Assembly: GCA_051747805.1 (NCBI GenBank)
Contig: JBNJGP010000001.1
Span: 5,281 to 69,280 of the forward strand
Source: Candidatus Muiribacteriota bacterium
GTDB lineage: Bacteria; Muiribacteriota; Muiribacteriia; Muiribacteriales; Muiribacteriaceae
DNA length: 64,000 bases
Direction: 5' to 3'
Position 1 is the stretch's first letter; every line of letters begins with the position of its first letter. The position numbers were made by a program, and so were the translations under genes. Below the pieces are notes generated by a model. It was not told the DNA's origin. It made no database searches and was given only the letters and a program-made list of their open reading frames with translations. Of this stretch, positions 4,200-29,605 are shown one piece after another.

Positions 4200-4284
4200 A
4201 ATGTTATACTTTGGAAAAAATAATAGATTTCCTCTTTATTATACGTTATAATTATTAAACGACACTTTGTAAGGGGGATTAAAA

Positions 4285-10698: not shown

Positions 10699-12411
10699 AT
10701 GATTAGAAAAACTAAAATTTTCCTTTTGTTTTTACTTGTTTTTTCATTTACTTTTTTTGCATATGAGTATGATCAGGGAGTTACTGTTGAAGGAAATGAC
10801 GTTTATTTTAGATTCTGGGCGCCAGGCAAACAGACCGTATCTGTTGTTGGTGATTTTAATGACTGGGACAAAGAAGCCAACCTTTTAGAACTTGATGGTA
10901 ATGGATATTGGAAAACTCATATTCAGCTTTCAAATGGTCAATATAGATATCAATACCTGATTAATGGTGAAAAGTATATTGGTGATCCATATGCTCGTGA
11001 GGTTGACTGGGACTTTCATGGTCCTAATGCTGTTTTAAGAGTTGGAGAACCTGAATTTGAATGGACTAATGATGATTTTCACATGGCTAATCAGAACGAT
11101 TTAATAATATATGAAATGCATATAGGTGATTTTTCTCCGGAAGGTACATTTAACGGTGCCAGGGAAAGAATACCATATCTTGCAGAGCTTGGAATTAATG
11201 CTGTTAAAATAATGCCAATTAAAGAATTTCCAGGAGATATTTCATGGGGATACAATCCGGCATATTATTTTGCGCCTGAAAACGCTTATGGTACACCTAA
11301 TGAATTAAAAGCTTTGATAAATGAACTTCATAATAACGGTATAGGAGTAATTCTTGATAATGTATTTAATCACTGTTCACATGACCACCCTTTTAATCAT
11401 CTTTACAATTATCATTCAAATCCATACTTTAATAATGTTGGTAATGAATGGGGAATGCCTAACTTTGATGTCTGGGCAGATGCGACAAAAAGACATGCCC
11501 GCGATGTTGTCCATTACTGGGTGAGAGAGTTTAGAATTGACGGCTTCAGATATGATTATACAAGTGGTATTGGATATGATGGCACAGATGGTATGAGTTT
11601 TATTTCCTGGGAGGCAAGAATGGCTGGTAATGCCATGGGTAAATATATTTATCAAATTGCAGAAAATCTCCCAATGAACCCGCATATGACACATACAACT
11701 GAAATAGATGCTCAGTGGAATGATATTTTTCATCATCAGTTAAAGGCAAATCTTCGTGAGGGAAAGTATAAAGATGACTTTTACTTTGGAAATCTTAAAA
11801 GAACTATGCAGGGAATTGATTATGAACAGCTTGGTTATAATGATCACACTCAGGTAATTAATTTTACAGAAAATCATGATGAAGAGCGCGTAATATATGA
11901 GGCTATGACTAATCCTCATATTGATTATCATAAAGCTGTTAGAAAGGCAAAACTAGGCGCAGTTGCTCTATTTACTTCAGCCGGGGTGCCTATGATTTAT
12001 CATGGTCAGGAGTTTGGTATGGATAGTGCTAGAACACTTGATCCGAATAAGATTGATTGGGATAAGTTAAACGAAAGTTATCCCGGCAGTGAATTATATT
12101 CTCATTTTAGGGCACTTATAAATTTAAGGAAAAATCATATGGCTTTAAGACAGAATAATATTGAAGAGGTTTACAGATATAATAATGAAAACGTCTTAAT
12201 TTACAAAAGATGGGATAATCATGGTGATATAATAATAGTTGCTCTGAATTTCTCAGATCAGGATCAATGGGTTGATATACCTGTACCTCATGATGGAACA
12301 TGGCATGAATATTTATTTGATTATAAAGCAAACGCTTCTTCTGGAAAAATTGCCGATGAGCAAATACCGCGTTCTGGGGCTAAAATATTCAGCTTGAAAA
12401 AAACATGGTAG
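10699..12411 (+). CDS. Secreted GH13 alpha-amylase-family glycoside hydrolase with N-terminal CBM48/E-set domain
   Basis: Signal peptide. VYFRFWAPGKQTVSVVGDFNDWD (CBM48 as in branching/debranching enzymes). GH13 regions DGFRYD, ENHDE, VLDNVFNH. RBS GGGGGA. Confidence 0.8.
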   Translation: MIRKTKIFLLFLLVFSFTFFAYEYDQGVTVEGNDVYFRFWAPGKQTVSVVGDFNDWDKEANLLELDGNGYWKTHIQLSNGQYRYQYLINGEKYIGDPYAREVDWDFHGPNAVLRVGEPEFEWTNDDFHMANQNDLIIYEMHIGDFSPEGTFNGARERIPYLAELGINAVKIMPIKEFPGDISWGYNPAYYFAPENAYGTPNELKALINELHNNGIGVILDNVFNHCSHDHPFNHLYNYHSNPYFNNVGNEWGMPNFDVWADATKRHARDVVHYWVREFRIDGFRYDYTSGIGYDGTDGMSFISWEARMAGNAMGKYIYQIAENLPMNPHMTHTTEIDAQWNDIFHHQLKANLREGKYKDDFYFGNLKRTMQGIDYEQLGYNDHTQVINFTENHDEERVIYEAMTNPHIDYHKAVRKAKLGAVALFTSAGVPMIYHGQEFGMDSARTLDPNKIDWDKLNESYPGSELYSHFRALINLRKNHMALRQNNIEEVYRYNNENVLIYKRWDNHGDIIIVALNFSDQDQWVDIPVPHDGTWHEYLFDYKANASSGKIADEQIPRSGAKIFSLKKTW

Positions 12412-13322: not shown

Positions 13323-14567
13323 TTATTCTAATTCATGAACAATTAAACCGCTTCTTAATTTCGGTTCAAACCAGGTTGATTTAGGTGGCATAACTTCGTC
13401 AGCATCTGCAACATTCATTAGATCATTTATTGATGTAGGATACATTGAAAAACTTACTTTGAATTTATTATTCTTTACAATTCTTTCAAGTTCTTCAAGA
13501 CCTCTTATGCCTCCGATAAAATCAATTCTGTCGTCAGTTTTTGGATCACCAATGTTTAATACAGGTTTAAGAAGATTTTTATATAATATACTTACATCAA
13601 GTGAGTCTATTACATCAGCTTCATTAAAAGTATCTTTTATGGGGGTTAGTTTATACCATTTGTCTTCTAAAAACATTCCAAAAGTGTGTTTTTTTTCAGG
13701 TTTATATTTTTGATTTTGTTCCTCAATTGTGAAATTATTTGAAATTTCTTTAAGAAAGTCTTCGCTGCAAAGACCGTTTAAATCTTTAACTGCACGATTG
13801 TAATCCATAATATAGAGCTCATTGTGAGGAAAAATAATTGATAAAAACCAGTTATACTCTTCATTGCCTGTATGATCCGGGTTTGCCTGTCTCCTGCGGT
13901 CACCGGTTTTTGCGGCGGCAGCCGACCGGTGATGACCATCTGCAACATAAAGGGCTTCAACATCATTAAATTTTTCAATAAGTTTTTTTAGAATATCTCT
14001 GTCGTTAATTTTATAAAATTTATGCTCTATTCCATCCTCTGTTTTAATATTATATACAGGAGAATATGAATTAATCCAGGAATCAATAATGTACTGTATT
14101 TCCCGGTTTTGTTTATACGTTAAAAAAACCGGCCCTGTATTAGCGTTGACTGTGTCCACATGTTTAATTCTATCTTCTTCTTTGGCGGTTCTTGTATGCT
14201 CGTGTTTTTTTATTCTGTTTTCAAGATAATCATCTATATGACAACATACAACAAGCCCTTTCTGATATATATCTCCCATTTTTTCAGTATAAATATATAA
14301 TGAATCTTCCTTTTCCTTTATTAGAATATTATTTTTTTTTAAATTCTCATAATTTTCTTTCCCTTTTTTATAAACCTCATCTGAATATAAATCATTTCCT
14401 GCCGGTAAATCAATTTCGGGTTTTGAAACATGTAAAAAACTGTAATCATTTCCAGAAGCAATTTCTCTGGCTTCTTCGGTGTTTACAACATCATAGGGGA
14501 AAGCAGCAACTTTTTGAGCATGTTCTTCTGCCGGTCTAACGCCTTTAAATGGCTTAATTCTAATCAT
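13323..14567 (-). CDS. DUF1015-family conserved hypothetical protein
   Basis: N-terminus MIRIKPFKGVRPAEEHAQKVAAFPYDVV and ~410 aa length match the DUF1015 pattern. Internal ADGHHRSAAA motif. Confidence 0.55.
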   Translation of the reverse strand: MIRIKPFKGVRPAEEHAQKVAAFPYDVVNTEEAREIASGNDYSFLHVSKPEIDLPAGNDLYSDEVYKKGKENYENLKKNNILIKEKEDSLYIYTEKMGDIYQKGLVVCCHIDDYLENRIKKHEHTRTAKEEDRIKHVDTVNANTGPVFLTYKQNREIQYIIDSWINSYSPVYNIKTEDGIEHKFYKINDRDILKKLIEKFNDVEALYVADGHHRSAAAAKTGDRRRQANPDHTGNEEYNWFLSIIFPHNELYIMDYNRAVKDLNGLCSEDFLKEISNNFTIEEQNQKYKPEKKHTFGMFLEDKWYKLTPIKDTFNEADVIDSLDVSILYKNLLKPVLNIGDPKTDDRIDFIGGIRGLEELERIVKNNKFKVSFSMYPTSINDLMNVADADEVMPPKSTWFEPKLRSGLIVHELE

Positions 14568-14726: not shown

Positions 14727-16115
14727 TTAAAGTGATTCTTTTAATGATTTTAGTTTTGTTGTTTCTGGAAGATTTTTTGTAAGGTCGTCAAATATTGATG
14801 AGAAAAATTCAATTTTACCCTGTTTTTGATAAATATCATGAAGTTTTATTATATATGCCTCTTTTTCAAGAGGGGTTTTAGACAGGCTAATTAGTTTCTC
14901 AACATAAAACAGGGTTTTATTTAAATCTTTATTTTTATAAAAGTTAAAACCCATATTTAAAGTTTCAATATCATTTAAGGCAAAAACTCTTTCAAATTGA
15001 AGAGCTTTTTTAACGTCTGTTTCTTTATAAAGAGAAAGTAATGTTTCATTAATTTTATTAGAGTTAAGATAAAGCAGTTTTTTTCCTATTTTAACTGCAG
15101 TATCTAATTCCCCGCTTTTTTTTAAACCAGTTATAAGTTGTATATATTCATCTATATTATCTGCAGAATATTCACTCATTTCAAAAAATGAAGAGGCGGC
15201 CCCGGTAAAATTTTTTTCTCTTAAATTAGATTTGAACTCAAAATAGTTTTTAATAATTTCAGAGTTTATTTTACTGTAATCTATTTTGTCCTGTTTTGTT
15301 TCTTCATTTTTTAAAAAAGAAAAAACTCTGCCTTTTTTATCATTAGTTATATTATTATAAGCGAAAATATCTTTCTGTATGTTATGAAAATGAAAGTTAG
15401 ATAAAAAAATAATTGTGAGTAATATAAAAATTGAAATGATAGATATAAAAGTATATTTCTGGTTTTTTTCGATTTTTTTTATAGTTTTCAGTAAAAAATA
15501 TTTATCAGAATTTTTATTTTCAGTTTTTTGAACAGAATCAAATTCTGAAGCAACAGGGCTATCTATAAGTTCTTCAATATTTTTATGGGAATTAATAATA
15601 TTTTTAACACTTTCATAAGCGCTTTCTTTTATCTGCTGGTCATCGGAGTATAAAAACACATTAAAATCATTTGATATAATGTTGTTAATGATAAGGTAAT
15701 AAGAATTCCAGGCGTTAATTTTTATTAACTGATTACCGCTTTCGGTTAGAGGTTTTATTAAATTTAATATATCAGGATTTGAACATTTTCTGATAGATTT
15801 TAAGGTGTTCAGCTTAATATCATTATCCCGATGATATAATAATTTTTTAAGAGAATCTTTAATTTTGACAAAAGGAAGCTCGTTAATCAGGGTTATAATA
15901 AAGTTTCTAATTTCTGTGTTAAAGAGACTGAAATTTTTTAACAGATTATTTAAAGCACTGTAGTCTTCAAGAATTCTAATATATTCAAGAAACTTAATTT
16001 TATCCTGATTTGTAATATTTTCATTCTGTAAAAATTCTACAGCATTATTTTTATTTATAAAAACGTTTTTCCCCTTTTTATAAAGGAGTTTGTCGTTTAA
16101 ATATTTTTCAATCAT
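14727..16115 (-). CDS. Membrane protein: cytoplasmic HEAT/PBS-like repeats, single TM, periplasmic TPR-like helical domain
   Basis: Repeats around LKKLLYHRDNDIKLNTLKSIRKCSNPDILNLIK. TM segment YTFISIISIFILLTIIFLSNF. C-terminal half is helical-repeat-like. Start overlaps the upstream small ORF (ATGA). Confidence 0.5.
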   Translation of the reverse strand: MIEKYLNDKLLYKKGKNVFINKNNAVEFLQNENITNQDKIKFLEYIRILEDYSALNNLLKNFSLFNTEIRNFIITLINELPFVKIKDSLKKLLYHRDNDIKLNTLKSIRKCSNPDILNLIKPLTESGNQLIKINAWNSYYLIINNIISNDFNVFLYSDDQQIKESAYESVKNIINSHKNIEELIDSPVASEFDSVQKTENKNSDKYFLLKTIKKIEKNQKYTFISIISIFILLTIIFLSNFHFHNIQKDIFAYNNITNDKKGRVFSFLKNEETKQDKIDYSKINSEIIKNYFEFKSNLREKNFTGAASSFFEMSEYSADNIDEYIQLITGLKKSGELDTAVKIGKKLLYLNSNKINETLLSLYKETDVKKALQFERVFALNDIETLNMGFNFYKNKDLNKTLFYVEKLISLSKTPLEKEAYIIKLHDIYQKQGKIEFFSSIFDDLTKNLPETTKLKSLKESL

Positions 16116-16415: not shown

Positions 16416-17786
16416 ATGATATTAAAATTAGTAGATGAATTAAAAGAAGAAGATGTTTTAGCCAAGGAAGTAACTCAGCGTGATTCAATTTTATATAAGT
16501 CTGGTAAAGTAATTTCTGAGGACGTTATAAAAAAAATAAAATCACTTGGGATTGGGTTCGTTTATATTGAAGGAAAACCCGGGAAAGATGAGTTAATAAG
16601 ACAGTATAAAATTGAGTTAGAAAATTCACTGCAGACTTCTATTTCCGATGATGAGAAAATCACTTTTTTAATTAAAGAGAAAGTTTCAGCAGAGGATATT
16701 TTTTCTTTTTATGAAAAAATTAATGATATTAATGTAAAAAAAAATTATATTGATTATTGTTTTAAGGATTTTTCAGACAATATATTTAATTTCTTTTTAA
16801 AAAAAATACGGCATGGAATTGAACCTGAAATTGTCTTATATATACTGGATTATCTGGAAAAAAACATAAAGAATATTAATGCTGAAAGTATTATCACTCT
16901 TTATAAAAATTCTAATGCTGAAGTTGTTGAAAAGGTTAAAAATATTCTAAAAAACAATTATTCATTAAGACAGCTTTATGATTTAAAAAAAAGACTTGAG
17001 CTTAAAAACGAGAAGTACGATTTTTTTGACAAAGATGTAAACTTTAACCTTATGCCTCATAAATCTTTCTGGGATATTAGAATTATGGTAGTTTCAAAAA
17101 ATACTGTTGAGCATAATATATTAAAGAGCTATCTTGAAAACCTTGAAATGAACGTAAAGTATTGCGAACCAGATAAAGCCTATGATTTAATTTCCAGTTT
17201 TGATCCTTACATTATCTTTTTTGATTTTGACAGAATTAAAAATCCTTTGAATAAATTTCTATCTGTTTCAAATGAGTTTTATAAAAAGATTTTTTTTATC
17301 ATCAGTTCGAGTGCAGATATCAAACTTTTAAAAAAAACTATGAGGGCCGGGGCAGATTATTTTTTAAAAAAGCCATACTCGCTTCCAAAAATTCAGACTT
17401 ATCTTTCAAAGGCTGTAAAAAATGGCAAGCTGATAGAGCAGCTGGATTTATCTAATAATTTGCTTAAAGTTGATATTAGATATTTTGGTTATAAAATCAA
17501 GAAATTTGACTTTTATGGTGAGTTATCTGCTATGACAACAGATGAAATTAATGAACCTGTTTTAAATAATATTCAAATTGATAAATTTTATTTTTTTGAT
17601 ATGCAAAACTTAGACAGTATTGATATGTCGGGAGTAAGATTTCTTTTAAAAGTAAAAGATGTTGTTAAACAGAAAACAGCCGAGCTGTATCTGCTGAACT
17701 GTTCAGATAAAATTCTTGAACAAATGGGAAATTACAGTAATCATGTTAATATTGTAGAATCCTGGGAAAAGGCAATATGGGTTTAA
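16416..17786 (+). CDS. Multidomain signalling protein: N-terminal helical region, receiver-like domain, C-terminal STAS (anti-sigma-factor-antagonist) domain
   Basis: REC-like: IRIMVVSKNTVEH...YIIFFDFD...YFLKKP. STAS: FFDMQNLDSIDMSGVRFLLKVKD...LYLLNCSDKILEQMG (SpoIIAA-like DxSxxxxDSSG region, here DMSG). Confidence 0.65.
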   Translation: MILKLVDELKEEDVLAKEVTQRDSILYKSGKVISEDVIKKIKSLGIGFVYIEGKPGKDELIRQYKIELENSLQTSISDDEKITFLIKEKVSAEDIFSFYEKINDINVKKNYIDYCFKDFSDNIFNFFLKKIRHGIEPEIVLYILDYLEKNIKNINAESIITLYKNSNAEVVEKVKNILKNNYSLRQLYDLKKRLELKNEKYDFFDKDVNFNLMPHKSFWDIRIMVVSKNTVEHNILKSYLENLEMNVKYCEPDKAYDLISSFDPYIIFFDFDRIKNPLNKFLSVSNEFYKKIFFIISSSADIKLLKKTMRAGADYFLKKPYSLPKIQTYLSKAVKNGKLIEQLDLSNNLLKVDIRYFGYKIKKFDFYGELSAMTTDEINEPVLNNIQIDKFYFFDMQNLDSIDMSGVRFLLKVKDVVKQKTAELYLLNCSDKILEQMGNYSNHVNIVESWEKAIWV

Positions 17787-18286
17787 TCCGGAATTTTTTA
17801 TTTAATTCTGATAAAGAGGGCTTAAAAAGAAGAAAGTCTGAAAAAATAATTAACAGACATAATAATAAAATATTAAAAAGAAATTTTAATTTTAATGCCG
17901 AAGATATCCTGATATTAATGCCGCACTGTGTTCAGTATAAACTTTGTAAAATACGTATTACTTTTAATCCTGAAAATTGTAATCACTGTGGACAATGTGA
18001 TGTTGGAAAACTGGTAAATTATTGTAAAAATAATAATCTTAAACTTGCAATTGCAACAGGCGGTACACTTGCAAGACGTATTATCAGAGAAATAAAACCT
18101 TCCGCAGTTGTTGCGGTTGCATGTCATCGCGATCTCTTATCCGGACTGAAAGAAATAAAAAAAATACCTGTTATTGGAATCTTAAATCAGATTGGAGAAG
18201 ATGGTCCCTGTGTTTCAACAGGATTTGATTTGAAAGAAATAAAAAAGGTTGTTAATTTCTTTCAGGGTTTTGACAAAAAAAATTAA
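17777..18286 (+). CDS. Cys-rich conserved hypothetical protein (DUF116-like)
   Basis: CVQYKLCKIRITFNPENCNHCGQCDVGKL...IATGGTLARRI. Overlaps the upstream gene by 10 nt. The family assignment comes from memory of the motif pattern only. Confidence 0.4.
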   Translation: MGLIRNFLFNSDKEGLKRRKSEKIINRHNNKILKRNFNFNAEDILILMPHCVQYKLCKIRITFNPENCNHCGQCDVGKLVNYCKNNNLKLAIATGGTLARRIIREIKPSAVVAVACHRDLLSGLKEIKKIPVIGILNQIGEDGPCVSTGFDLKEIKKVVNFFQGFDKKN

Positions 18287-18314
18287 AAAATATATCATTT
18301 CTTCGAGGTCAATA

Positions 18315-19283
18315 ATGAAAAAGAAAAAAGACGGAAGTATATTTACTGCTATTTTATATATTATTACATTTGTGGTTCTGGTAAGAGGCATGTTTGTCGG
18401 AACTATTTATGTTATTGAGGATTTTTTTAACGAGGGGCAGGTTCGAGTTCCGGATTTTGTAGGAATGTCTCTTAATGATGCTATGGAACTGGCCCCCAGA
18501 TATAAACTGCGTCTTGAAGTTAAGGGTGAAGCCCATGATGAGCATCTTGAAAAAAATTATATTATTAAACAGGATCCTATTAGTAATTTTTCTGTAAAAA
18601 AAGGGCGCACAATTGAGTTTATAATAAGCAAAGGGAAAAAAGAAAGTATAACTCCCAATCTCAGGGGGATTTCTGTCAGAGAAGCAGAAAGAGTAATTCT
18701 TCAGAATAACTTTTCTATTGGACGTAAAAGCTACGTTTATTCTGATGAACCAGAGGGGGTTATTGTTTCTCAACAGCCTCTGGCTGGCATAAATTATAGA
18801 GAGGGGCAGTTTATAAGTATGCTTGTTTCCAAAGGTGATAAAACTGAGTATGTAATTCTTCCCGAATTTATCGGGGGGAATTATAATAATGTCAAAGATA
18901 CAATTAGAATGATGGGGCTTGAAGTTGGAAACATAAAATACGATTTTGCAGATGAAAAAGAACCCGGCGAAATAATTGATCAACAGCCAGCTTCTGGAAC
19001 CAGACTTGAAAAAGGGGCAGAAATAAACTTGAGAGTGAACCGGAATCGAACCACCAGCCGACAGGAAACCAAGAGAAAAACGGTGAATTTTGAATATGAA
19101 ATTCCAGACGGAAGAGGAGAAAAAGAGCTTAAAGTTATATTGATTGATGACCTCGGCATCAGAGAGGTTCACAGAAGCACATACTCTCCGGAAGCAAGAG
19201 CTTCTTTTACTTTGCATGGCAGCGGAAGAATGAAAGCTTTAATTTATATAGACAATTTAAAAGTCGATGAGAGAGAATATTGA
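18315..19283 (+). CDS. Membrane-anchored PASTA-domain protein (N-terminal TM plus three PASTA repeats)
   Basis: ATG at 18315 (MKKKKDGS) followed by TM FTAILYIITFVVLV. Three repeats of the pattern VPDFVGMS..A...L / ITPNLRGIS..EA / ILPEFIGGNY..V, each ending in xSKG/RVN. Also IIDQQPASG. Confidence 0.75.
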   Translation: MKKKKDGSIFTAILYIITFVVLVRGMFVGTIYVIEDFFNEGQVRVPDFVGMSLNDAMELAPRYKLRLEVKGEAHDEHLEKNYIIKQDPISNFSVKKGRTIEFIISKGKKESITPNLRGISVREAERVILQNNFSIGRKSYVYSDEPEGVIVSQQPLAGINYREGQFISMLVSKGDKTEYVILPEFIGGNYNNVKDTIRMMGLEVGNIKYDFADEKEPGEIIDQQPASGTRLEKGAEINLRVNRNRTTSRQETKRKTVNFEYEIPDGRGEKELKVILIDDLGIREVHRSTYSPEARASFTLHGSGRMKALIYIDNLKVDEREY

Positions 19284-20323
19284 AAATAATCGGACTAGTA
19301 TTAAAACAAAAATATCAGATATTACAGAGAATTGGAGAAAATGAAAGATTTTATACTTTCAGAGGAATTAATATAAAAAATGAATCTCCAGTATTTATCA
19401 AGGTTGTAAAGCAGTCACTTCTTAAAGATAAGAAAAAAATTAAATTTTTCACAGAAGAAGTAAAATCCCTTGCAAAAATAAAACATGAAAACGTAGTAAA
19501 AGTATATGATGTTGATTTTAAAAACGGTATTTTATATGTGGTTACTGAATATATTGAGGGAAAAAGTCTTTATCAGTATATAAGCCAGAAGAAAAAATTT
19601 GATTTCTGGCAGGTTATTCAGATTGTAAATCAGCTTGCCTCTGTTTTGAAATATGCCTTTGATAAGGGAGTTAAATACAGAACTGTTAAACATTCAAATA
19701 TAATTATTACAGATGATATGAAGGTTAAAATTTTATCTTTTAACGTTCCCAGGTCAATTTTATCTCCGCTTCCTGTTAAAATAAAAGAAAACGAGGGTAT
19801 TGACCCGGATATTTTTTTTCTGGGAGTTGTTTTATATGAACTTTTCACACTTAAGTTTCCTCTCAGGGATAAGGATTTACCTGTAACAGATATTTCTATG
19901 CTGGATGAAAATCTACTTGATACAAGGTGGAATATAACATTTGCAGATATTGAGTCTCCCGAAAAAAAAGAAGGAATTGAAAAAGTGATTTATCATTCAG
20001 TTACCCGTAATATACTTGATAGATATAAAAGTATTGAGGAATTTTTAGATGATTTAAAACAATATATAGAAAAAAAAGATAGAAAAGAAAAAACAATGAA
20101 AACTGCAAGTGATGTTACAAATGAACTCGGTGTTAATGAATATGTTTTTAATAAGAGATTTAATGGAAAAAATAAAAATTATTCTAAAAAAACAAAAGAG
20201 GATAAAATATTCAATATTCCAGAGGAAGAACCGGGAGTATTAAGAAAGCAGATAATATTTTTAGTTTCTGCCTTCTCGGTAATTCTTGCGTTAATTTATT
20301 TTATTTACACGCTTCTGTTTTAA
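19280..20323 (+). CDS. Ser/Thr protein kinase-like pseudokinase with C-terminal TM anchor
   Basis: Hanks fold is recognisable (beta3 Lys in VFIKVV, helix-C Glu in EEVKSLAKIKHENVV, APE-region DIFFLGVVLYELFTLKFPL). Catalytic motifs are degenerate: Gly loop GENERF, HRD replaced by YRT (VKHSN retained), DFG replaced by SFN. C-terminal TM IIFLVSAFSVILALIYFIY. 4-nt overlap with the PASTA gene. Confidence 0.7.
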   Translation: MKIIGLVLKQKYQILQRIGENERFYTFRGINIKNESPVFIKVVKQSLLKDKKKIKFFTEEVKSLAKIKHENVVKVYDVDFKNGILYVVTEYIEGKSLYQYISQKKKFDFWQVIQIVNQLASVLKYAFDKGVKYRTVKHSNIIITDDMKVKILSFNVPRSILSPLPVKIKENEGIDPDIFFLGVVLYELFTLKFPLRDKDLPVTDISMLDENLLDTRWNITFADIESPEKKEGIEKVIYHSVTRNILDRYKSIEEFLDDLKQYIEKKDRKEKTMKTASDVTNELGVNEYVFNKRFNGKNKNYSKKTKEDKIFNIPEEEPGVLRKQIIFLVSAFSVILALIYFIYTLLF

Positions 20324-20334
20324 GGGAGATTATT

Positions 20335-20973
20335 ATGTTAGTAGCACCATCAATATTATCTTCAGATTTTAATATACTTGGTGAAGAGGTTAATAATGTA
20401 AAAGAAGCTGGTGCCGACTGGATTCACGTTGATGTGATGGACGGGCATTATGTTCCTAATATTACAATTGGTCCAGTAGTAATTAAAAATTTGAAAAAAA
20501 TATCAGAAAATCTTATTCTGGATTGTCATTTAATGATAACCAATCCTGATAAATATATAGAATCTTTTGTTGAGGCCGGAGCCGATATTATAACTGTACA
20601 TTCAGAAACCTGCCCTCACCTTAATAAAACTCTGAATTATATAAAAGAACTCGGGATAAAGGCCGGAGTAACATACAATCCTGCCACTTCCATGAATAAT
20701 TTAAAATATATAAAAGATATTGTTGATGTTGTGCTTATAATGTCGGTTAATCCAGGTTTTTCAGGACAGAAATTTATACCATCATCATTAGAAAAAATTA
20801 AAGAGGTTAGACAAATCTGCCCTCCTCATGTAAAAATACAGGTTGACGGGGGAATTAATAATAAAAATATTGCTGATATAAAAAAAGCCGGTGCAGATGT
20901 TGTGGTTGCCGGGTCTTATATTTTTGGTTCAGATAATTACAGAGAAAAAATAGAGAGTTTAAAAAGAGGATAG
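20335..20973 (+). CDS. rpe: Ribulose-phosphate 3-epimerase
   Basis: MLVAPSILSSDFNILGEEV...HVDVMDGHYVPNITIGP...VDGG are Rpe hallmarks. RBS AAGGGAG. Confidence 0.9.
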   Translation: MLVAPSILSSDFNILGEEVNNVKEAGADWIHVDVMDGHYVPNITIGPVVIKNLKKISENLILDCHLMITNPDKYIESFVEAGADIITVHSETCPHLNKTLNYIKELGIKAGVTYNPATSMNNLKYIKDIVDVVLIMSVNPGFSGQKFIPSSLEKIKEVRQICPPHVKIQVDGGINNKNIADIKKAGADVVVAGSYIFGSDNYREKIESLKRG

Positions 20974-20977
20974 TAAA

Positions 20978-21958
20978 ATGGCAGAATTAAGGAAGGATCC
21001 AGTTTCACAAAGATGGATTATTATATCTGACAAGGAGTTAAATCCTGAAGATTATCTTTATAACGAGGCTAAGAATTCCAACAACACAGAAAATTGTCCT
21101 TTCTGCGATAAAAATTCACATATGATTGAAAAGGAGATTTTAAGAACATCATATAATAATCGATGGGCTGCAAGAATTGTAAATAATAAATTTCCTGCCC
21201 TGATTTCTGAGGTAGAGCTTGAAAAAGAGGCGGACGGTGTTTATGATAAAATGAGTGGTTACGGCTATCATGAGGTTATAATTGACAGTTATGAACATTT
21301 TGTCCCGTTTCACAAGACAAGTCCCGAAAAGATAGAAAAAGTTCTTGAGGCCATGGTAAAAAGGTACAGAGAATTAAAAAAAGATAAGAATTTAAAATAT
21401 GTACTTTTTTTTAAAAATTACGGAGCTTCTGCGGGGGCTTCACTTTCCCATTCACATGCACAGCTTGTTGCTACGCCTGTTGTTCCAAAAATCGTAATGA
21501 ACGAGCTTCTTTTTTCAAAAAAATATTTTAATTATAAAGAAAGATGTTTATTCTGCGATTTAATTAATCAGGAAAAAAAAGATAAAGAGAGATTAATAAC
21601 TTTTAATCAGGATTTTTATGCGTTTGTTCCCTATGCTCCAAGATTTCCTTTTGAAACATGGATTTTACCTGAACTTCATAATTCCAGCTTTGGAAATATA
21701 AAAAATTGTGAATTGAAAAATTTAGCTGTTATAATTAAAGAATGTATTAACAGATTAGAAAAAGTTTTTAAAAACCTTCCTTTTAATTTTGTAATACATA
21801 CAGCTCCTTTTGAAAATAATTGTGGGGATTACTATCACTGGCATATTGAGATTATGCCCCGGCTGACAAAGGTGGCCGGTTTTGAATGGGGCTCGGGGTT
21901 TTATGTAAATGAAACAAGCCCTGAAAAAGCTGCCGGGATTTTAAGAGAGGCATTTTAG
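20978..21958 (+). CDS. GalT-like (HIT superfamily) hexose-1-phosphate nucleotidyltransferase, paralog 1
   Basis: Zn-site CPFCDKNSH. HIT-type HSHAQ histidine motif (SLSHSHAQLV). C-terminal HWHIEIMPRLTKVAGFEWGSGFYVN, conserved with paralog 2. Confidence 0.75.
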   Translation: MAELRKDPVSQRWIIISDKELNPEDYLYNEAKNSNNTENCPFCDKNSHMIEKEILRTSYNNRWAARIVNNKFPALISEVELEKEADGVYDKMSGYGYHEVIIDSYEHFVPFHKTSPEKIEKVLEAMVKRYRELKKDKNLKYVLFFKNYGASAGASLSHSHAQLVATPVVPKIVMNELLFSKKYFNYKERCLFCDLINQEKKDKERLITFNQDFYAFVPYAPRFPFETWILPELHNSSFGNIKNCELKNLAVIIKECINRLEKVFKNLPFNFVIHTAPFENNCGDYYHWHIEIMPRLTKVAGFEWGSGFYVNETSPEKAAGILREAF

Positions 21959-21975
21959 GAATAACTGGAGGTCTT

Positions 21976-23409
21976 ATGAATATTACCCATATTTGTTCAG
22001 AGTTAAATCCTTTTATAAAAACTGGTGGACTGGCCGATGTTACGGGGTCACTGCCAAAAGCTCAGGCTAAGTCTAAAAATGAAATAAACATTATTGTACC
22101 ACTTTATAAAGATATAATAGAAAATTATTCTCTGGATTACTATGCTGACTTTCCAATGGAAACGCCCCTGGGGCTTAAAACAGTTATTGTTAAAAAAACT
22201 AAAATTAAAAGAAAGTTGACAGTTTATTTTATAGGTGAACACTCCTATTTTTATAGAGATAAAATCTATGGTGATTATGAAGATAATCCGCAGCGTTTTG
22301 CATTTTTTTCAAAGGCGGCACTTAACTTTCTGGAAAAATATAATAATATTCCAGATGTTGTTCACTGTCATGACTGGCAGACCGGACTTGTATCTCTTTA
22401 TGCCCGGGGGAATAATAAATTTAAAAACACGGTTTTTGGTTATACTATTCATAATATAGCATTTCAGGGCTTATTTGATTTTACTGATTTATACTCTCTT
22501 GAGCTGAACTCCTATTATTTTACACCCGATAAGCTTGAATTCTTTGGAAAAGGGAGTTTTTTAAAAGCTGGTATTATTTATTCAGATTTTGTAAACACAG
22601 TAAGTCCAACTTATAGAGACGAAACCTTTACCCCAGAATATGGTTTTGGTCTTCAGGGGCTTCTTGAATGGAAGCGTAAGGATTATTATGGTGTTATAAA
22701 TGGAATAGATAAGGATGAATGGAATCCTCTCAAAGATAATAAAATATTTAATAACTACTCATATTTAAAAATTGCCGAAAAAGAACCTAATAAAAAAGAA
22801 CTTTTAAAAAAGGTAAATCTTCCCTTTAAAAAGGACAGGGCCCTATTTGTTTCAATAACTAGACTGGCGGATCAGAAAGGGATAGACCTTATTATTAATT
22901 CTGCCTCAAACATCGTGAAAAAAGGTCATTATCTCATAATTCTTGGAAGTGGGGACACTTTTTATGAAGAGCTTCTAAAAGAGTTTGAAAAAAAATTCCC
23001 TCAGAATATAAGGGTATTTCTTAGATATGATTTTGAACTTGCGCATCAGCTTTATGCTGGCGGTGATTTTTTTCTTATGCCCTCAAAATTTGAGCCCTGT
23101 GGTTTAAGTCAGCTAATATCAATGAGATATGGAAACATTCCTGTTGTAAGAAAAACAGGAGGGCTTGCTGATACTGTAGATGATTGGAGCGAAAAAGAAA
23201 AAAAGGCGACGGGATTTGTTTTCAGAAACTTTGACTCTGATTCTTTTAATTATACGATAAACAGGGCGCTTGATGTTTTTAAAAAAGAAAAAGATTTTAA
23301 AAGTTTAATTAAAAATTGTATGAAGCAGAATTTTTCATGGGATGAAACAGCCAAAACTTATAAGAAACTGTATGAAAAATATACAAAAAAAAATCCGGAG
23401 AAATATTAA
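21976..23409 (+). CDS. glgA: Glycogen/starch synthase (GT5, NDP-glucose dependent)
   Basis: N-terminal KTGGLADV motif, HCHDWQTGL, C-terminal GGLADTV. RBS GGAGG. Confidence 0.9.
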   Translation: MNITHICSELNPFIKTGGLADVTGSLPKAQAKSKNEINIIVPLYKDIIENYSLDYYADFPMETPLGLKTVIVKKTKIKRKLTVYFIGEHSYFYRDKIYGDYEDNPQRFAFFSKAALNFLEKYNNIPDVVHCHDWQTGLVSLYARGNNKFKNTVFGYTIHNIAFQGLFDFTDLYSLELNSYYFTPDKLEFFGKGSFLKAGIIYSDFVNTVSPTYRDETFTPEYGFGLQGLLEWKRKDYYGVINGIDKDEWNPLKDNKIFNNYSYLKIAEKEPNKKELLKKVNLPFKKDRALFVSITRLADQKGIDLIINSASNIVKKGHYLIILGSGDTFYEELLKEFEKKFPQNIRVFLRYDFELAHQLYAGGDFFLMPSKFEPCGLSQLISMRYGNIPVVRKTGGLADTVDDWSEKEKKATGFVFRNFDSDSFNYTINRALDVFKKEKDFKSLIKNCMKQNFSWDETAKTYKKLYEKYTKKNPEKY

Positions 23410-23411
23410 CA

Positions 23412-24422
23412 ATGAGAGATTACAGAAAAGACCCAATTACACGACGCTGGGTAATAATATCTTCTGATAGAAGCAAGAGACCAAGAGATTTTGGTCATGT
23501 AACAGATATTACTGATGACAAAAACTGCCCTTTCTGCGAAGGAAACGAAGATATGACTCCTCCTGAAATTTTTGCACTCCGGGAAAATGGCGAAGAAAAC
23601 GGCCCAGGGTGGAAGGCAAGAGTAATTCCTGACAAATATTCCATTCTTGAAAATAGAGGAGATGTTAAAAAAAAGGGCCATGGTATATATGATAGCATGA
23701 GTGCCACAGGATTTCATGAACTTATAATAGAAACGCCTAATCATATGGGAAGTCTTGCAAATTTAAGTTTTGATGAAATAAAAACCTATTTAAAGGTGTT
23801 AAAAACAAGAATGGGGGAACTTAAAAACGATTATAGAATACAGTATATACTTGCCGTTAAAAATTATGGATCTGAGGCAGGGGCCAAGTTTAAACATTCA
23901 CATTCACATTCTCATATTGTTGGCCTGCCTATTGTTCCAAAAAGAGTTAAAGAAGAGATTGACGGAGCAAAAGAATATTACAGCTTCCGGGAAAGATGTG
24001 TATTCTGTGATATTGCCGCCCAGGAACTTGCTGAAAACGAAAGAATAATATTAAATAATGAGGATTTTATATCATTATGTACATATGCGGCCCGGTTTCC
24101 ATATGAAACACATATTTATCCTAAAAAACATATTTCATCCTTTGAGGATACGCCTGAGGAAATGTTTGATAATCTGGCCCGTATTTTAAAAAAAACTATT
24201 TTATCTTTATGTAAGGTTATTGATACATTAGCCTATAATATAGTTATTCATACTAAACCAGTTAACCAGGTTGTGCCTGTTTTATATCACTGGCATATTG
24301 AAATAATGCCTAGAGTAACAAAAGTTGCAGGGTTTGAATGGGGTTCAGGTTTTTATATTAATTCTGTTCTTCCTGAAGATGCTGCAAAGTTAATGAAAGA
24401 AAAAATTAATGAGGGGGTTTAA
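23412..24422 (+). CDS. GalT-like (HIT superfamily) hexose-1-phosphate nucleotidyltransferase, paralog 2
   Basis: CPFCEGNEDM, FKHSHSHSHIVGLP, HWHIEIMPRVTKVAGFEWGSGFYIN. Same architecture as 20978..21958. Confidence 0.75.
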   Translation: MRDYRKDPITRRWVIISSDRSKRPRDFGHVTDITDDKNCPFCEGNEDMTPPEIFALRENGEENGPGWKARVIPDKYSILENRGDVKKKGHGIYDSMSATGFHELIIETPNHMGSLANLSFDEIKTYLKVLKTRMGELKNDYRIQYILAVKNYGSEAGAKFKHSHSHSHIVGLPIVPKRVKEEIDGAKEYYSFRERCVFCDIAAQELAENERIILNNEDFISLCTYAARFPYETHIYPKKHISSFEDTPEEMFDNLARILKKTILSLCKVIDTLAYNIVIHTKPVNQVVPVLYHWHIEIMPRVTKVAGFEWGSGFYINSVLPEDAAKLMKEKINEGV

Positions 24423-25835
24423 ATGAAATTTTATAATGATGGATGGTATGGTAAAATTTCAGATGATTTTATTTATTCTAATATTAAAACCCTGGCCAAA
24501 GCTATTGCTAAATACATAATTTCTCATGATCTTGCTAAAAAAAAGGTGATAATTGGTTATGATAGCCGTTTCTTATCGTATGAGCACGCTCAGCTTGTAG
24601 CAGAGGTGCTAATGGGTAATAAACTTGACTGCTGTATTTCCGATAGAGATGTTCCTTCTGTTTTTACTGCGGCAACTTTGAAAAGTTATAAAGGGGCCTC
24701 TGCTGTTCATATTACCGGGCAGAATCAGAAGTATTTTAACAATGGGCTGCTTTTTTTCCCCGAATATGCCGGTCCTCCTTTCAGCCATATTTCAATGGAA
24801 ATTGAAAGAAATATCAGATTGATTAAAGACCTTGATGAAGAAATCGAAATAAAAGGTTTTCAAAAGGGAATTGCCGTAAACTCTCTTCAGGCAATTGATT
24901 TTTACTCAGAATATGCAAAATGTGTTAACAGAATAATTGATTTAAAGAAATTTAAGGATAGTGATTTAAAGATTGTAGTTGATTATATGAATGGCAGTAT
25001 GAGGCATTTTTTAAATAAATTAGTACCAAGAGGGGTTGAATGGATAGAATTAAATCATACATTTAATCCTTATTTTAATGGAATAAAGCCTGACCCTGTT
25101 TCAGGTAAGCTGGAATTTCTTGTAGAAAACATTAAAAATACTGAGGCTGATTTTGGTGTGGCTTTTGATTCTGACGGTGGAAATATATGTTTTATTGATT
25201 CAAATGGACAAAAAATCCATAGGGATATTCTCCTTGGAATTGTTCTTGAATATATTATTAAAAACAAAACTAAAAATGGAATTGTGGTTAAAACAAATTC
25301 AACTACCTCATTAGTGGATGAAGTTTGTCAGAAAAATGGAGTTGAAATAGAAGAAACATATTCTGGATTCAGGCATATTGTTGAAAGATTAATTAAAAAC
25401 AAGGTGATTCTCGGAGCTGATAATTCTGGTGGTATAACAAGTTCTGATCATGTTCCCGTTAAAGATTCAGTTCTTTTTCTTCTTTATATAATTGAAATAA
25501 TGAGTCTGAAGAAGAAATCCCTGACTGAACTGGTTGAGGAATTCAATAGCGAGTATGGACAATTTTATTCAAAATGTTTTGAAATAAAACATAATTCAGA
25601 AGAGGAAAAGCTTAGAATAATTAGTAAATTAAAAAAATTCAGTGATTCTTTCAGAGAAGAAGATATAAAAGATATTTATCAAACAGATGGTTTAAAAATG
25701 ATATTTAAAGATAAAAGCTGGTTTTACATTAGAATTCACTCTGCGGCATTAAAATCTGAGGTTATTATTGAAAGTCAGGATAAAAATATTACAGAAAAAC
25801 TTCAGAATAAAATAAATAAAATCTTAAAAGATTAA
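24423..25835 (+). CDS. Alpha-D-phosphohexomutase superfamily protein (PGM/PMM-like), divergent active-site loops
   Basis: Domain II metal loop AFDSDGGNICFID (cf. DGDGDR). Domain III ADNSGGITSSDHVPVKD (cf. GEESFGTGSDHIREKDG). The catalytic phosphoserine loop (T/SASHNP) is not recognisable; the closest is GASAVHITGQN. Confidence 0.6.
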   Translation: MKFYNDGWYGKISDDFIYSNIKTLAKAIAKYIISHDLAKKKVIIGYDSRFLSYEHAQLVAEVLMGNKLDCCISDRDVPSVFTAATLKSYKGASAVHITGQNQKYFNNGLLFFPEYAGPPFSHISMEIERNIRLIKDLDEEIEIKGFQKGIAVNSLQAIDFYSEYAKCVNRIIDLKKFKDSDLKIVVDYMNGSMRHFLNKLVPRGVEWIELNHTFNPYFNGIKPDPVSGKLEFLVENIKNTEADFGVAFDSDGGNICFIDSNGQKIHRDILLGIVLEYIIKNKTKNGIVVKTNSTTSLVDEVCQKNGVEIEETYSGFRHIVERLIKNKVILGADNSGGITSSDHVPVKDSVLFLLYIIEIMSLKKKSLTELVEEFNSEYGQFYSKCFEIKHNSEEEKLRIISKLKKFSDSFREEDIKDIYQTDGLKMIFKDKSWFYIRIHSAALKSEVIIESQDKNITEKLQNKINKILKD

Positions 25836-25846
25836 GGGGATTTTTT

Positions 25847-26389
25847 ATGCATATCAGGAAAAATTATTTTGTTGATAAGGGTTTTCAGACTGAAATTATA
25901 TTTGCTCTGCTTTTTTTAACTTTTTTTATTATTTTCATAACTTTTTTTAATCTGTATTTTTTTGTAGAGTATTTTACTTTAAACGTTCTTGAACCTGAAG
26001 AGTATAAGCAGTTTACACTTCTTTTATCAAAAGCCTGGACGCTTTTGAGTGATAAAATATTTTTTTTGCTTTTTATTGACTTTTTGATAATTGTGTTTGT
26101 TGGATTATTTCTATCTCATCAGATAGCAGGACCTGGTTTTAAATTAAAAAAATCCATAAATAAAATTGCAGATGGCAACTTAAACTTTAAAGTAAAGCTG
26201 AGGCAGGGAGATAAGTTCGTATCAATGGCTGAAAGTTTAAATTATTTAATTGAAAAATATCAGAACAGGTTTAAATCATTAAAATTTTATACTGCAAAAC
26301 TTAAAGACTCAATTATTGAGAAAAAGGACAAAGAGGCCCTGGAAAATCTTGGGGAAATTGAAAAAAATATGGATGAAATAAATTTTTAA
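25847..26389 (+). CDS. Small membrane protein with two TM helices and a HAMP-like domain, no output domain
   Basis: TM1 IIFALLFLTFFIIFITFF and TM2 FFLLFIDFLIIVFVGLFL, followed by the HAMP-like sequence LSHQIAGPGFKLKKSINKIADGNLNFKV. Ends at 180 aa. RBS AAGGGGA. Confidence 0.45.
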   Translation: MHIRKNYFVDKGFQTEIIFALLFLTFFIIFITFFNLYFFVEYFTLNVLEPEEYKQFTLLLSKAWTLLSDKIFFLLFIDFLIIVFVGLFLSHQIAGPGFKLKKSINKIADGNLNFKVKLRQGDKFVSMAESLNYLIEKYQNRFKSLKFYTAKLKDSIIEKKDKEALENLGEIEKNMDEINF

Positions 26390-26391
26390 TA

Positions 26392-26985
26392 ATGATTTTA
26401 GGTATTTGTGGAAAAATTGGCAGTGGAAAAACATTGTTGTCTGAATTTTTTAAAAATAATCAAAACAGTTATATAATTAACTGCGACAAACTGGCCTCAG
26501 AGTTAATTAACGATAAACAGGAAATTCTTGAATTAATTTCAAAAAATTTCGGCTCCAAACTGATTATAAATAATCAGCTGAATAAAAAAATGATGAGAAA
26601 AATTGTCTTCAATGATAAAAAAAGTCTTTATAAACTTAATCAGATAGTTCATCCCTTTCTTTTTAATGAAGTGAAAAATATTTTAAATATAGAAGAGCTT
26701 AAATCTGAATACAGTTATATAGTTGTAGAGGCTGCTGTTTTATATGAAGCTTCTTTATATAAGCTTGTTGATAAAATTATATGGGTGAGTGCAAAGCTGC
26801 ATAATATACTTCAGAGAGTAAGTTTAAGGGATAAAGATAAAAGAAAAAATATTGAAAATATATACAAAATTCAAAAATCATATAATGAAGTGCAACCAGA
26901 GCCTGATATAGTTATAGAAAATAATAAAACAGTCAATGAATTTAAAAAAAAAGCAGGGAGTCTTGTTGCCTCCCTTAATAAATAA
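26392..26985 (+). CDS. coaE: Dephospho-CoA kinase
   Basis: P-loop ILGICGKIGSGKT at the N-terminus, ~197 aa, CoaE-like layout (HP motif in IVHPFL). Confidence 0.75.
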   Translation: MILGICGKIGSGKTLLSEFFKNNQNSYIINCDKLASELINDKQEILELISKNFGSKLIINNQLNKKMMRKIVFNDKKSLYKLNQIVHPFLFNEVKNILNIEELKSEYSYIVVEAAVLYEASLYKLVDKIIWVSAKLHNILQRVSLRDKDKRKNIENIYKIQKSYNEVQPEPDIVIENNKTVNEFKKKAGSLVASLNK

Positions 26986-28375: not shown

Positions 28376-29605
28376 ATGGGAAAGAACAGATTTTTATTAA
28401 TTACTTTTATACTTTTATATATATATACGGGTTATGCTAATACTTTTAACCGGCTTGACGAGAGGATGAGTGGCTTTGAACTTATGTATGGTGTTGAGTC
28501 TTATGAGAATGAATTTGGGGATTTTCAAAATTATTTTAAACTTCAGTTTTTTCCGGAATTTCAAATTAGACCAGAGACCAGATTAGTGCTGGATCTATCA
28601 TTTATATATGATACAGATGGGAATATCTTGCTTGATCATTATTCTGGAAGTGGTGATATCCTTGAAAAAATACATTTTATTGAGCATGATGACGGGTTTA
28701 GAAATAAAATGAGAATAGGATATCTGGATAATGTTACATTTGGAAATGGTTCCATAATGAATAACTATACAAATATGGGACGTTTCCCGGAAGAAAGAAA
28801 GTTAACGGGACTTTATGCTAATTTTGAAAACTCTCATGATGACGGCTGGGAAGTGGTTTTTAATGATTTAAAAAAACTTTCAATGGCTGGTGTTAGAAAA
28901 TATATTGTTCCTCTTGATGATGTAGAAATCGGCGGCAGTTATTTTATAGACCGACGTCCTTCTGCTAGCAATAACGGTGACTCTGTTCGAGTTTATGGAC
29001 TTGATTATATAACCCCGGTTTATTTAGGGTTTTCAAGAAAAGTTTTTTTGTATCAGGATTTAACTAGAATAAAAGGAACAGGTTCATGTTATACAACTGG
29101 TGCAAAAATTGGCAACGGAGATGGCTTTGGGGCGCAGGTAGAGATTAAAAGTTATTCAGGAAATTTTATACCACATTATTTTGACTCCCTTTATGAAGTG
29201 GAAAAACAGAGGAAATATAATGAACTTAAGTCTGGACAGAATAATGGACGGGTCAGAAGTCTGAATGTTCAGACAAACTATAATATGGGGCGTCATTTAG
29301 AAGGGAAACTGTTGTATGAAATGTACGATGTTTCTGATATTAATCCTAAATTAGGTGTTCAACTTTCAATGGATGGTATGTTTCTTCCTGAAGGTTTGCA
29401 GTTTGAATGGACATATTTAAACAAAGATGCAGATTTTTCTAATATAAATCAAAATAAAAATTCAAAAGATGTATATATAAACACAAAGTTATCCTATAGG
29501 GCGCCTTTTGGTGTTGAGTTAGAGTTAAACAGAAAAAGAACGGTAAGCCAGAGTGGAAATGCTGAGTATGTTACATCATTCATGACTGGTTTCAGGTTTA
29601 GATGA
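28376..29605 (+). CDS. Secreted beta-strand-rich protein (outer-membrane beta-barrel-like), function unknown
   Basis: Signal peptide FLLITFILLYIYTGYA. Alternating hydrophobic pattern throughout. RBS AAGGAG. Confidence 0.5.
   Translation: MGKNRFLLITFILLYIYTGYANTFNRLDERMSGFELMYGVESYENEFGDFQNYFKLQFFPEFQIRPETRLVLDLSFIYDTDGNILLDHYSGSGDILEKIHFIEHDDGFRNKMRIGYLDNVTFGNGSIMNNYTNMGRFPEERKLTGLYANFENSHDDGWEVVFNDLKKLSMAGVRKYIVPLDDVEIGGSYFIDRRPSASNNGDSVRVYGLDYITPVYLGFSRKVFLYQDLTRIKGTGSCYTTGAKIGNGDGFGAQVEIKSYSGNFIPHYFDSLYEVEKQRKYNELKSGQNNGRVRSLNVQTNYNMGRHLEGKLLYEMYDVSDINPKLGVQLSMDGMFLPEGLQFEWTYLNKDADFSNINQNKNSKDVYINTKLSYRAPFGVELELNRKRTVSQSGNAEYVTSFMTGFRFR

Follow-up and report, generated by a model that had tools for sequence, protein, structure and literature searches.

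At5g18200-type nucleotidyl transferase genes bracketing glgA in Muiribacteriota: members of a recurrently glgA-linked bacterial family annotated as GalT

The stretch of DNA analysed here, referred to as the window, comprises 64,000 nucleotides of a contig (JBNJGP010000001.1) from a metagenome-assembled genome of Candidatus Muiribacteriota. Within it, a glycogen synthase gene (glgA) is bracketed by two genes, designated A and B, whose products resemble galactose-1-phosphate uridylyltransferase (GalT). Judged by their sequences, both proteins are double-HIT nucleotidyl transferases of the type represented by Arabidopsis thaliana At5g18200, an ADP-glucose phosphorylase, and stand apart from the GalT of the Leloir pathway. 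The reading proposed here, to which we assign an overall probability of about 0.6, is that A is an ADP-glucose phosphorylase acting on the pool of ADP-glucose used by GlgA, and that B and the degenerate phosphoglucomutase (PGM)-fold protein encoded next to it are lineage-specific derivatives. Neither the kind of enzyme, which is already known, nor its fold is unusual; the novelty lies in the recurrent coupling of a misannotated bacterial family to glgA, together with the Muiribacteriota bracket and its two peculiar components, a derivative with an HxHxH motif and a dead PGM.

The genes bracketing glgA

The core of the locus consists of rpe, A, glgA, B and the PGM-like gene, which lie in this order on the same strand and are tightly packed, with successive gaps of 4, 17, 2 and 0 nucleotides (nt). 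Gene A (20978-21958, +; 326 amino acids, aa) encodes an orthodox member of the At5g18200 type, that is, an ADP-glucose phosphorylase-like protein, and gene B (23412-24422, +; 336 aa) a derivative specific to Muiribacteriota with a remodelled active site. The first-pass annotation of this DNA had described two paralogs of GalT/HIT type around glgA, both with the GalT zinc knuckle CPFC and a histidine motif. This description is accurate: the open reading frames (ORFs) run exactly where it had placed them, each protein contains GalP_UDP_transf and GalP_UDP_tr_C above the respective Pfam cutoffs (two fused HIT-like half-domains), and every motif is found at its expected place. In A, these are the zinc knuckle CPFC (nt 21095-21106, aa 40-43), HSHAQLV (nt 21449-21469, aa 158-164), a second CLFC (nt 21545-21556), HWHIE (nt 21836-21850), and the hexose loop GFEWG (nt 21878-21892). 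B has CPFC at aa 39-42, a second CxFC, HWHIE and GFEWG, as well as KFKHSHSHSHIV, with a 2-aa insertion and the HIT-type HSHSHIV at nt 23901-23921 (aa 164-170).

The gene between them (21976-23409, +; 477 aa) encodes a GT5 glycogen synthase of the ADP-glucose type. It scores 529.5 bits against TIGR02095 (cutoff 328.45), comprises the Pfam domains Glyco_transf_5 and Glycos_transf_1, is 34% identical to E. coli GlgA over its full length, and shows the motifs KTGGL and EPCGL in its translation.

Affiliation with the plant ADP-glucose phosphorylase

When the Protein Data Bank is searched, the best matches of both proteins are structures 1Z84 and 2H39 of At5g18200 (E = 4.7e-64 for A and 6e-60 for B), whereas the archaeal GalT 6K5Z (PaGalT) is matched at about 1e-36 and E. 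coli GalT (EcGalT) at 2e-23 by A and 1e-19 by B. Identities in BLASTP are about 50% to the mainstream bacterial family described below, about 35% to At5g18200, 28-29% to PaGalT and 23-25% to EcGalT. An alignment of 237 sequences contains 121 family-conserved columns, defined by conservation of 90% or more within the bacterial family. At5g18200 has 84 of these in common with the family, PaGalT 59 and EcGalT 47; 28 are common only to At5g18200 and 5 only to the two UDP enzymes. A neighbour-joining (NJ) tree likewise groups the family with At5g18200, apart from EcGalT and PaGalT. Finally, the AlphaFold model of B (pLDDT, a per-residue confidence score, 87.3; predicted TM score, pTM, 0.88; low confidence at residues 306-311) matches 1Z84, 1ZWJ and 2H39 first, with E of about 1e-30 and TM scores of 0.82-0.91, and GalTs at about 1e-24; its matches to 1Z84, 6K5Z and 1HXP extend over the full length. 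The first-pass annotation had stated that the GalT branch includes ADP-glucose phosphorylases and had suggested phylogeny as a check. Identity, conserved columns, the tree and the model of B all bear this out by placing the two genes with At5g18200.

At5g18200 (1Z84, 1ZWJ, 2H39; EC 2.7.7.36) is reported to act as an ADP-glucose phosphorylase and not as a GalT (PMC6329318). It converts ADP-glucose and phosphate to ADP and glucose 1-phosphate (Glc-1-P) with a Michaelis constant (Km) of 7 uM (PMC4136846), and its biological role is not known (PMC11066809). Like A and B, it is of similar length and has two half-HIT domains, a zinc site of CxxC/His type, and a second CxxC; with A it also has the HSHxQ motif in common. 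Unlike A and B, it is a plant cytosolic protein with no operon context. The Glu/His/His residues of the second site are kept in the bacterial proteins, while At5g18200 has R, F and Q there, and B further departs from the plant protein in having His for Gln and Lys for Ser.

The class I GalTs (E. coli 1HXP/1HXQ, human GALT, and Pyrobaculum PaGalT 6K5Z) belong to the same branch and have the same fold, zinc ligands and His-x-His nucleophile, and ping-pong chemistry is expected throughout. All five residues of the zinc site and nucleophile (C52, C55, H115, H164 and H166 in EcGalT) are present in A and B and are invariant or nearly so among the 237 sequences (C55 in 230/237). The nucleotide-contact positions of EcGalT give a mixed picture: N77 and V108 are common to all groups, and L54 is replaced by F, as in At5g18200 and PaGalT. 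A and B differ from class I GalTs in their low identity (23-29%), the lack of Leloir neighbours, scores below the equivalog cutoff, and placement in a separate clade.

A bacterial family recurrently linked to glgA

With either paralog as query, over 7,000 proteins are retrieved at E <= 1e-10, and these are about 50% identical. The family occurs in at least 600 bacterial species in a scan of reference genomes, and in thousands of metagenomic clusters. Its members come from Acidobacteriota, Nitrospirota, Thermodesulfobacteriota, Thermotogota, Omnitrophota, KSB1, Latescibacteria, Methylomirabilis, and others. Where the sources give them a name, it is GalT or UDPglucose-hexose-1-P uridylyltransferase, with one exception ('HIT domain-containing protein'). 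Conversely, the name 'ADP-glucose phosphorylase' in the literature often denotes a misnamed AGPase/GlgC (confirmed in two cases).

The association with glgA noted by the first-pass annotation recurs across phyla. It was surveyed at 80 reference loci, taking 10 kb around the family gene. A GT5 glgA is present nearby on the same strand in 18 of them, and lies directly downstream of the GalT-like gene in 17. The 18 loci belong to Nitrospirota, Thermodesulfobacteriota, Ignavibacteria, Zixibacteria, and Nitrospinota. In addition, Thermosipho africanus TCF52B (P0076) has the family gene 15 nt downstream of glgA. Neither galK, galM, glgC nor a second GalT-like copy occurs within 10 kb in any of the 80 loci, in a survey that did not include galE. 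In phylogeny, glgA-linked members intermingle with unlinked ones, and all therefore constitute one orthologous family; with no separate clades, a distinct glgA-linked subfamily is unsupported. The glgA-adjacent members outside Muiribacteriota, such as that of T. africanus, are like A and B in their identity of about 50% and direct adjacency to glgA. They differ in being single-copy at all loci sampled and in lacking both the HxHxH variant and a pseudo-PGM partner.

Two further kinds of neighbour were found. At five loci (L022, L023, L035, L052, and L059), a gene for a GH57 protein of about 715 aa, of the alpha-amylase/4-alpha-glucanotransferase type, directly precedes the GalT-like gene, which in three of them is followed by glgA. 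These neighbours strengthen the alpha-glucan context of the family. At two loci from metagenome-assembled genomes, one of Ignavibacteria (L061:~3600-4930) and one of Zixibacteria (L070:~2050-3340), a PF13562 protein is encoded directly upstream of the GalT-like gene, which is itself followed by glgA. This protein of about 425 aa has an NTP_transf_4 domain and, by sequence, an apparent left-handed beta-helix region, and is a candidate non-GlgC sugar-1-phosphate nucleotidyltransferase for glycogen synthesis.

An orthodox and a remodelled copy

At 43% identity (BLASTP E = 4e-98), A and B resemble each other far beyond chance. In the NJ tree, A-type and B-type proteins are each monophyletic in 200/200 bootstraps, and the two are sisters in only 10/200. 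The NJ distance of each paralog to the mainstream family is about 0.8, as against 0.95 to the other paralog. A recent tandem duplication can be set aside in view of the 43% identity, the greater proximity of each copy to the mainstream family, and the rarity of the sister grouping. The duplication is old, as had been supposed: each copy is monophyletic, and both have been kept in at least four diverged Muiribacteriota lineages. Indeed, the order rpe–A–glgA–B–PGM-like is preserved in several independently assembled lineages of the phylum (L003-L007 and L092).

The first-pass annotation had treated the two copies as equivalent, which they are not. A retains every family-invariant residue, including the zinc ligands, HSHxQ and the hexose loop, and has the equivalents of both Ser161 and Gln168 of EcGalT, where B has Lys and His. 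The changes peculiar to A are in the TPPE loop that follows the zinc knuckle, and those peculiar to B are in the catalytic core. In EcGalT numbering, the replacements in B are Asn77→Asp, Val108→Leu, Ser161→Lys (independent of gap placement), and Gln168→His. All four are fixed in 5/5 B copies, and none occurs in the remaining 233 sequences; EcGalT, PaGalT, At5g18200, the 219 mainstream proteins, and clade A show no variation at the positions concerned. Of the residues replaced, Asn77 and Val108 line the uridine pocket in EcGalT, Ser161 is essential for its catalysis, and Gln168, also important, corresponds to human Gln188, the site of the classic galactosaemia mutation.

The 2-residue insertion in B gives KF(K/S)HSHSHSH(I)(V/L)G, which is the canonical HIT motif HxHxH-phi-phi. 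The HxHxHxx motif of canonical HIT proteins such as Hint, Fhit, and the mycobacterial Ap4A phosphorylase Rv2613c is thus matched by HSHSHIV. These proteins are weak fold matches to single halves of the B model, and the resemblance is one of motif only: unlike them, B is a fused, zinc-containing double-HIT protein of GalT type with a hexose loop.

B nevertheless keeps the zinc site, the nucleophilic His and the GFEWG loop, despite its altered core. Within the lineage, B copies are 70-76% identical, compared with 61-68% for A. Among 5.8 billion proteins, three other clusters are at least 70% identical to B, after which identity drops to about 50%; the copy of L092 is 70% identical and has the same motif. 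Sequence comparison thus indicates that B is found only in Muiribacteriota and is under strong constraint. A decaying pseudogene can be dismissed, as the ORF is intact, the model is confident, and B is more conserved than A.

The near-identical C-terminal tails, which the first-pass annotation had singled out, are indeed the same at 24/27 positions, but they are no special feature of the two paralogs. The tail YHWHIEIMPRxTKVAGFEWGSGFY is a signature that is invariant in alignments of the whole family, and the genome-scanning tool itself selected it as a search pattern. It aligns with the EcGalT segment holding Tyr316 and Glu317, which enters the active site of the partner subunit to bind hexose. 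At the nucleotide level, 11 of the 24 identical residues differ in codon, and third-position identity is 54%. Since synonymous sites have diverged and the tail is invariant across the family, the identity reflects constraint on the protein, and for the same two reasons gene conversion is rejected as its cause. By these comparisons, the tails are the family-wide hexose-binding loop, kept by purifying selection.

Separately, the 3' end of A contains a terminator-like hairpin at 21859-21889 (+; CCGGCTGACAAAGGTGGCCGG then TTTT), within the codons of the PRLTKVAGF part of the tail. Lying upstream of glgA and some 80 nt short of the stop codon of A, it may be a chance occurrence or an internal attenuator. 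Scanning this AT-rich region for promoters and terminators gave nothing informative.

A pseudo-enzyme of phosphoglucomutase fold

The start codon of the next gene (24423-25835, +) abuts the stop codon of B. Its product matches domains I-III of PGM and phosphomannomutase in Pfam and has no match to domain IV. It reaches at best 170 bits with an NCBIfam model (cutoff 439), and NCBI names it 'hypothetical protein'. It was compared with 1TUO, 1WQA, 16 genuine PGMs, and seven Muiribacteriota orthologs. Where genuine PGMs have TASHNP in the catalytic Ser loop, DxDxDR in the Mg loop, GEES in the sugar loop, and SGTEP in the phosphate loop, this protein has ITGQNQK, DSDGGN, ADNSGG, and RIHSAAL, respectively. 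All four loops are gone in 7/7 orthologs (P0233-P0239; 48-100% identical) and kept in 16/16 genuine PGMs; at the position of the catalytic Ser, the orthologs have Q/K/N/T/G/S/G. This family occurs in Muiribacteriota only, and matches beyond it are at most 28% identical. Its members are full-length and always directly downstream of B (for example, L003:11010-12422, L006:11009-12421, and L092:7527-8939).

The loss of the four signature loops in all seven orthologs marks this protein, to judge from the alignment, as a conserved, catalytically dead pseudo-enzyme. The first-pass label of a pgm-like gene is therefore misleading, as the protein, lacking the catalytic Ser, Mg, sugar and phosphate loops, is not a credible phosphoglucomutase, and a role for the gene as supplier of Glc-1-P is rejected on the same grounds.

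Proposed role in ADP-glucose turnover

We infer from sequence the enzyme activity, nucleotide specificity, direction of reaction, and roles of B and the pseudo-PGM. By homology, A would catalyse ADP-glucose + Pi ⇌ ADP + glucose-1-phosphate (Pi, inorganic phosphate) via a covalent His-NMP (His-AMP) intermediate on the second His of HSHAQ. Co-transcribed with a GlgA of ADP-glucose type, it would work on the same substrate pool. The reaction of the plant enzyme is reversible. Its equilibrium constant (Keq), as reported by McCoy et al. 2006, lies on the side of phosphorolysis, at about 5 in the absence of Mg and about 40 at 1 mM Mg. Because a constant of this kind favours phosphorolysis, A would most likely buffer or drain ADP-glucose, returning any surplus to Glc-1-P and ADP with the phosphoanhydride bond kept, and might thereby set the flux through GlgA. 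For the same reason, supply of ADP-glucose is the less likely direction, and A would make it from ADP and Glc-1-P only at a high Glc-1-P/Pi ratio. If this constant is right, A and GlgA would together be equivalent to a glycogen phosphorylase in net stoichiometry.

Since B has lost active-site residues of the family but kept the fold and nucleophile, it probably has either an altered nucleotide or acceptor specificity or a role as a modified partner subunit of A; its four changed residues would be in contact with nucleotide or phosphate. The pseudo-PGM appears to have co-evolved with B and is probably a regulator or scaffold that binds hexose phosphate. The best reading of B and the pseudo-PGM is that they were added in this lineage and brought changed specificity or a regulatory partnership, neither of which is favoured here.

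Removal of ADP-glucose has a bacterial precedent, as the ADP-sugar pyrophosphatase AspP of E. coli limits glycogen synthesis in this way. GlgC/GlgD is likewise a precedent for a catalytic and a degenerate paralog paired in a glycogen operon. Both parallels with A and B are functional analogies only, and the folds and chemistries are unrelated. If the proposed role is correct, metabolic reconstructions miscall galactose catabolism in many phyla, and miss a step of ADP-glucose turnover that could control glycogen flux as a phosphorolytic counterpart of AspP. The bacterial operon context also provides a testable hypothesis for the physiological role of the plant enzyme. Moreover, the Muiribacteriota locus is a natural experiment, in which an orthodox copy, a copy with the canonical HIT motif, and a dead PGM are all maintained under constraint in one operon.

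A number of observations weigh against this proposal. Both proteins narrowly pass the galT model TIGR00209 (117.4 bits for A and 107.7 for B; cutoff 102.1), which accounts for their automatic naming as GalT, and identity to At5g18200 is limited to the 35% or so given above. The column of EcGalT Asp78 has Lys in the family, Arg in PaGalT and Leu in At5g18200; because the family is here nearer to PaGalT than to the plant protein, nucleotide specificity is not readable from sequence. There is no glgA nearby in 62 of the 80 family loci and, as linked and unlinked members form no separate clades, the role of the family may reach beyond glycogen. The searchable literature contains no characterised or assayed bacterial member and no description of the linkage to glgA. 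Lastly, a drain co-transcribed with the synthase it drains is left unexplained.

Alternative explanations

The marginal passes of TIGR00209 would suit true Leloir UDP-glucose:galactose-1-phosphate uridylyltransferases that were duplicated and lie beside glgA by accident, as would the fold held in common with GalTs and the presence in A of all GalT catalytic and zinc residues. However, A and B score only 140.8 and 122.6 bits against the GalT equivalog PRK11720 (cutoff 448) and are closer in identity to At5g18200, and closer still to the glgA-linked family, than to EcGalT. The homolog closest to them among characterised proteins is reported to be a phosphorylase of ADP-glucose and no GalT (PMC6329318), galK and galM are absent from the window and from the 80 loci, and glgA is nearby in 18 of these. 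B, in addition, is without the equivalents of Ser161 and Gln168, which are needed for GalT activity. This explanation is very improbable.

A different possibility is that A, B or both run in the direction of synthesis, making ADP-glucose and Pi from ADP and Glc-1-P for GlgA, so that ADP is catalytic, no ATP is spent, and GlgC is dispensable. The first-pass annotation had found no pyrophosphorylase of GlgC or GalU type in view, which holds across the whole window: when every ORF of 150 aa or more was scanned against Pfam, no glgC, galU, galK, galM or glgP came to light, and tblastn with E. coli GlgC, GalU, GalK, GalM and GlgP gave no match. The window has no other NTP-transferase gene either, and this, the lack of glgC at the 80 related loci, the tight operon with a glgA of ADP-glucose type, and the reversibility of the plant homolog's reaction all fit synthesis without GlgC. 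Yet glgC is frequently unlinked from glgA, and little can be concluded from the lack of it in 64 kb. The operon offers no active PGM to provide Glc-1-P, and with the reported Keq of about 5-40 towards phosphorolysis, the net process would be glycogen phosphorylase running backwards, which is unfavourable at cellular Pi.

Comparative evidence also opposes synthesis without GlgC. T. africanus TCF52B has the glgA–GalT-like pair plus GlgC (PMC6629080 Table 1), as all 42 Thermotogae genomes surveyed have GlgC (PMC6629080), and hence the family does not simply replace GlgC. In Ignavibacteria and Zixibacteria, the PF13562 gene directly upstream shows that the family accompanies a putative pyrophosphorylase there, and is no replacement for one. 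We therefore regard synthesis without GlgC as unlikely. The T. africanus pair and the PF13562 genes in the same operons of two phyla suggest an accessory function beside the classical pathway, in which the family would buffer or salvage ADP-glucose and so conserve sugar phosphate. The earlier suggestion that the paralogs supply or recycle the NDP-glucose pool consequently survives in part: the link to glgA and the affinity to ADP-glucose phosphorylase agree with it, and simple replacement of GlgC at the level of the family does not. A more elaborate proposal confined to Muiribacteriota is a GlgC-free cycle, in which A makes ADP-glucose or, with GlgA reversed, takes part in an ADP-dependent two-enzyme glycogen phosphorylase, while B and the pseudo-PGM are a new module that sets the direction. 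Such a module may be catalytic or regulatory, for example by way of a second nucleotide-glucose or hexose-phosphate sensing. We consider this cycle highly doubtful.

It is also conceivable, if distinctly unlikely, that A and B are an obligate heterodimer, with B regulatory or half-active in the manner of GlgC/GlgD, and that the pseudo-PGM perhaps joins them to sense sugar phosphates. Both class I GalT and At5g18200 are dimers in which the C-terminal loop of the partner completes the active site. The GFEWG loop is intact in both copies, and the low confidence of the B model at residues 306-311 is as expected of a loop that needs a partner. Furthermore, the conserved sites at which A has diverged (the TPPE loop) are not those at which B has (the catalytic core), and B is lineage-specific, as is the pseudo-PGM that adjoins it. 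The interaction itself is hypothetical, however, and the constraint on B, with its nucleophile and zinc site, equally fits an active enzyme. The two are also no sister clades, as seen in the bootstraps.

Surrounding genes and other features of the window

The glycogen genes lie within a string of 11 genes in one direction (16416-26985), with gaps of -38 to +17 nt, in a window of about 31% G+C. The order is STAS-domain protein, DUF116, PASTA protein, Ser/Thr kinase, rpe, A, glgA, B, PGM-fold protein, small membrane protein, and coaE. The full string occurs in L003, L004, and L006; L092, where it is at a contig end, is without only a recognisable STAS gene.

The upstream part (16416-20973, +), with the genes for the STAS, DUF116 and triple-PASTA proteins, the kinase, and rpe, runs unbroken into the glycogen genes, and its order is kept in the same three diverged Muiribacteriota assemblies and almost complete in L092. 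The kinase may have a regulatory connection with glycogen metabolism. The rpe gene itself (20335-20973, +), 4 nt upstream of A, encodes a ribulose-phosphate 3-epimerase (TIGR01163, 304 bits; cutoff 212.6). In Firmicutes such as Bacillus, rpe follows PASTA/Ser-Thr kinase genes in the prkC-rpe operon, and here it probably belongs with the upstream PASTA/kinase housekeeping cluster rather than with the glycogen module. Membership of the latter is unlikely, as rpe is present in none of the 80 other family loci, whether linked to glgA or not.

Downstream, 11 nt after the PGM-like gene, is a gene for a small membrane protein with a HAMP-like segment (25847-26389, +), followed after 2 nt by coaE (26392-26985, +), with which the co-directional string ends; both are kept in relatives. 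Two antisense ORFs, one over the PASTA gene (18354-19217, -; 287 aa) and one over B (23406-23744, -; 112 aa), are probably spurious, as they read as low-complexity translations of AT-rich frames.

The only other glucan gene in the window encodes an alpha-glucan-active enzyme with GH13 and CBM48 domains (10699-12411, +). It is TreZ-, GlgB- or GlgX-like and below every equivalog cutoff; its best NCBIfam score is to TreZ (265 bits; cutoff 539), and GlgB is matched at 173 bits. Several large ORFs, at 13323-14567 (-), 14727-16115 (-), 42511-44265 (+) and 28376-29605 (+), have a DUF1015 match or no Pfam match. Further along, 46458-49966 (+) encodes a carboxyltransferase (PF01039, 663 bits) and the beta subunit of a Na+-transporting decarboxylase (OAD_beta, 536 bits). 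These genes suggest a sodium-pumping methylmalonyl-CoA or oxaloacetate decarboxylase, which would fit an anaerobic fermentative lifestyle.

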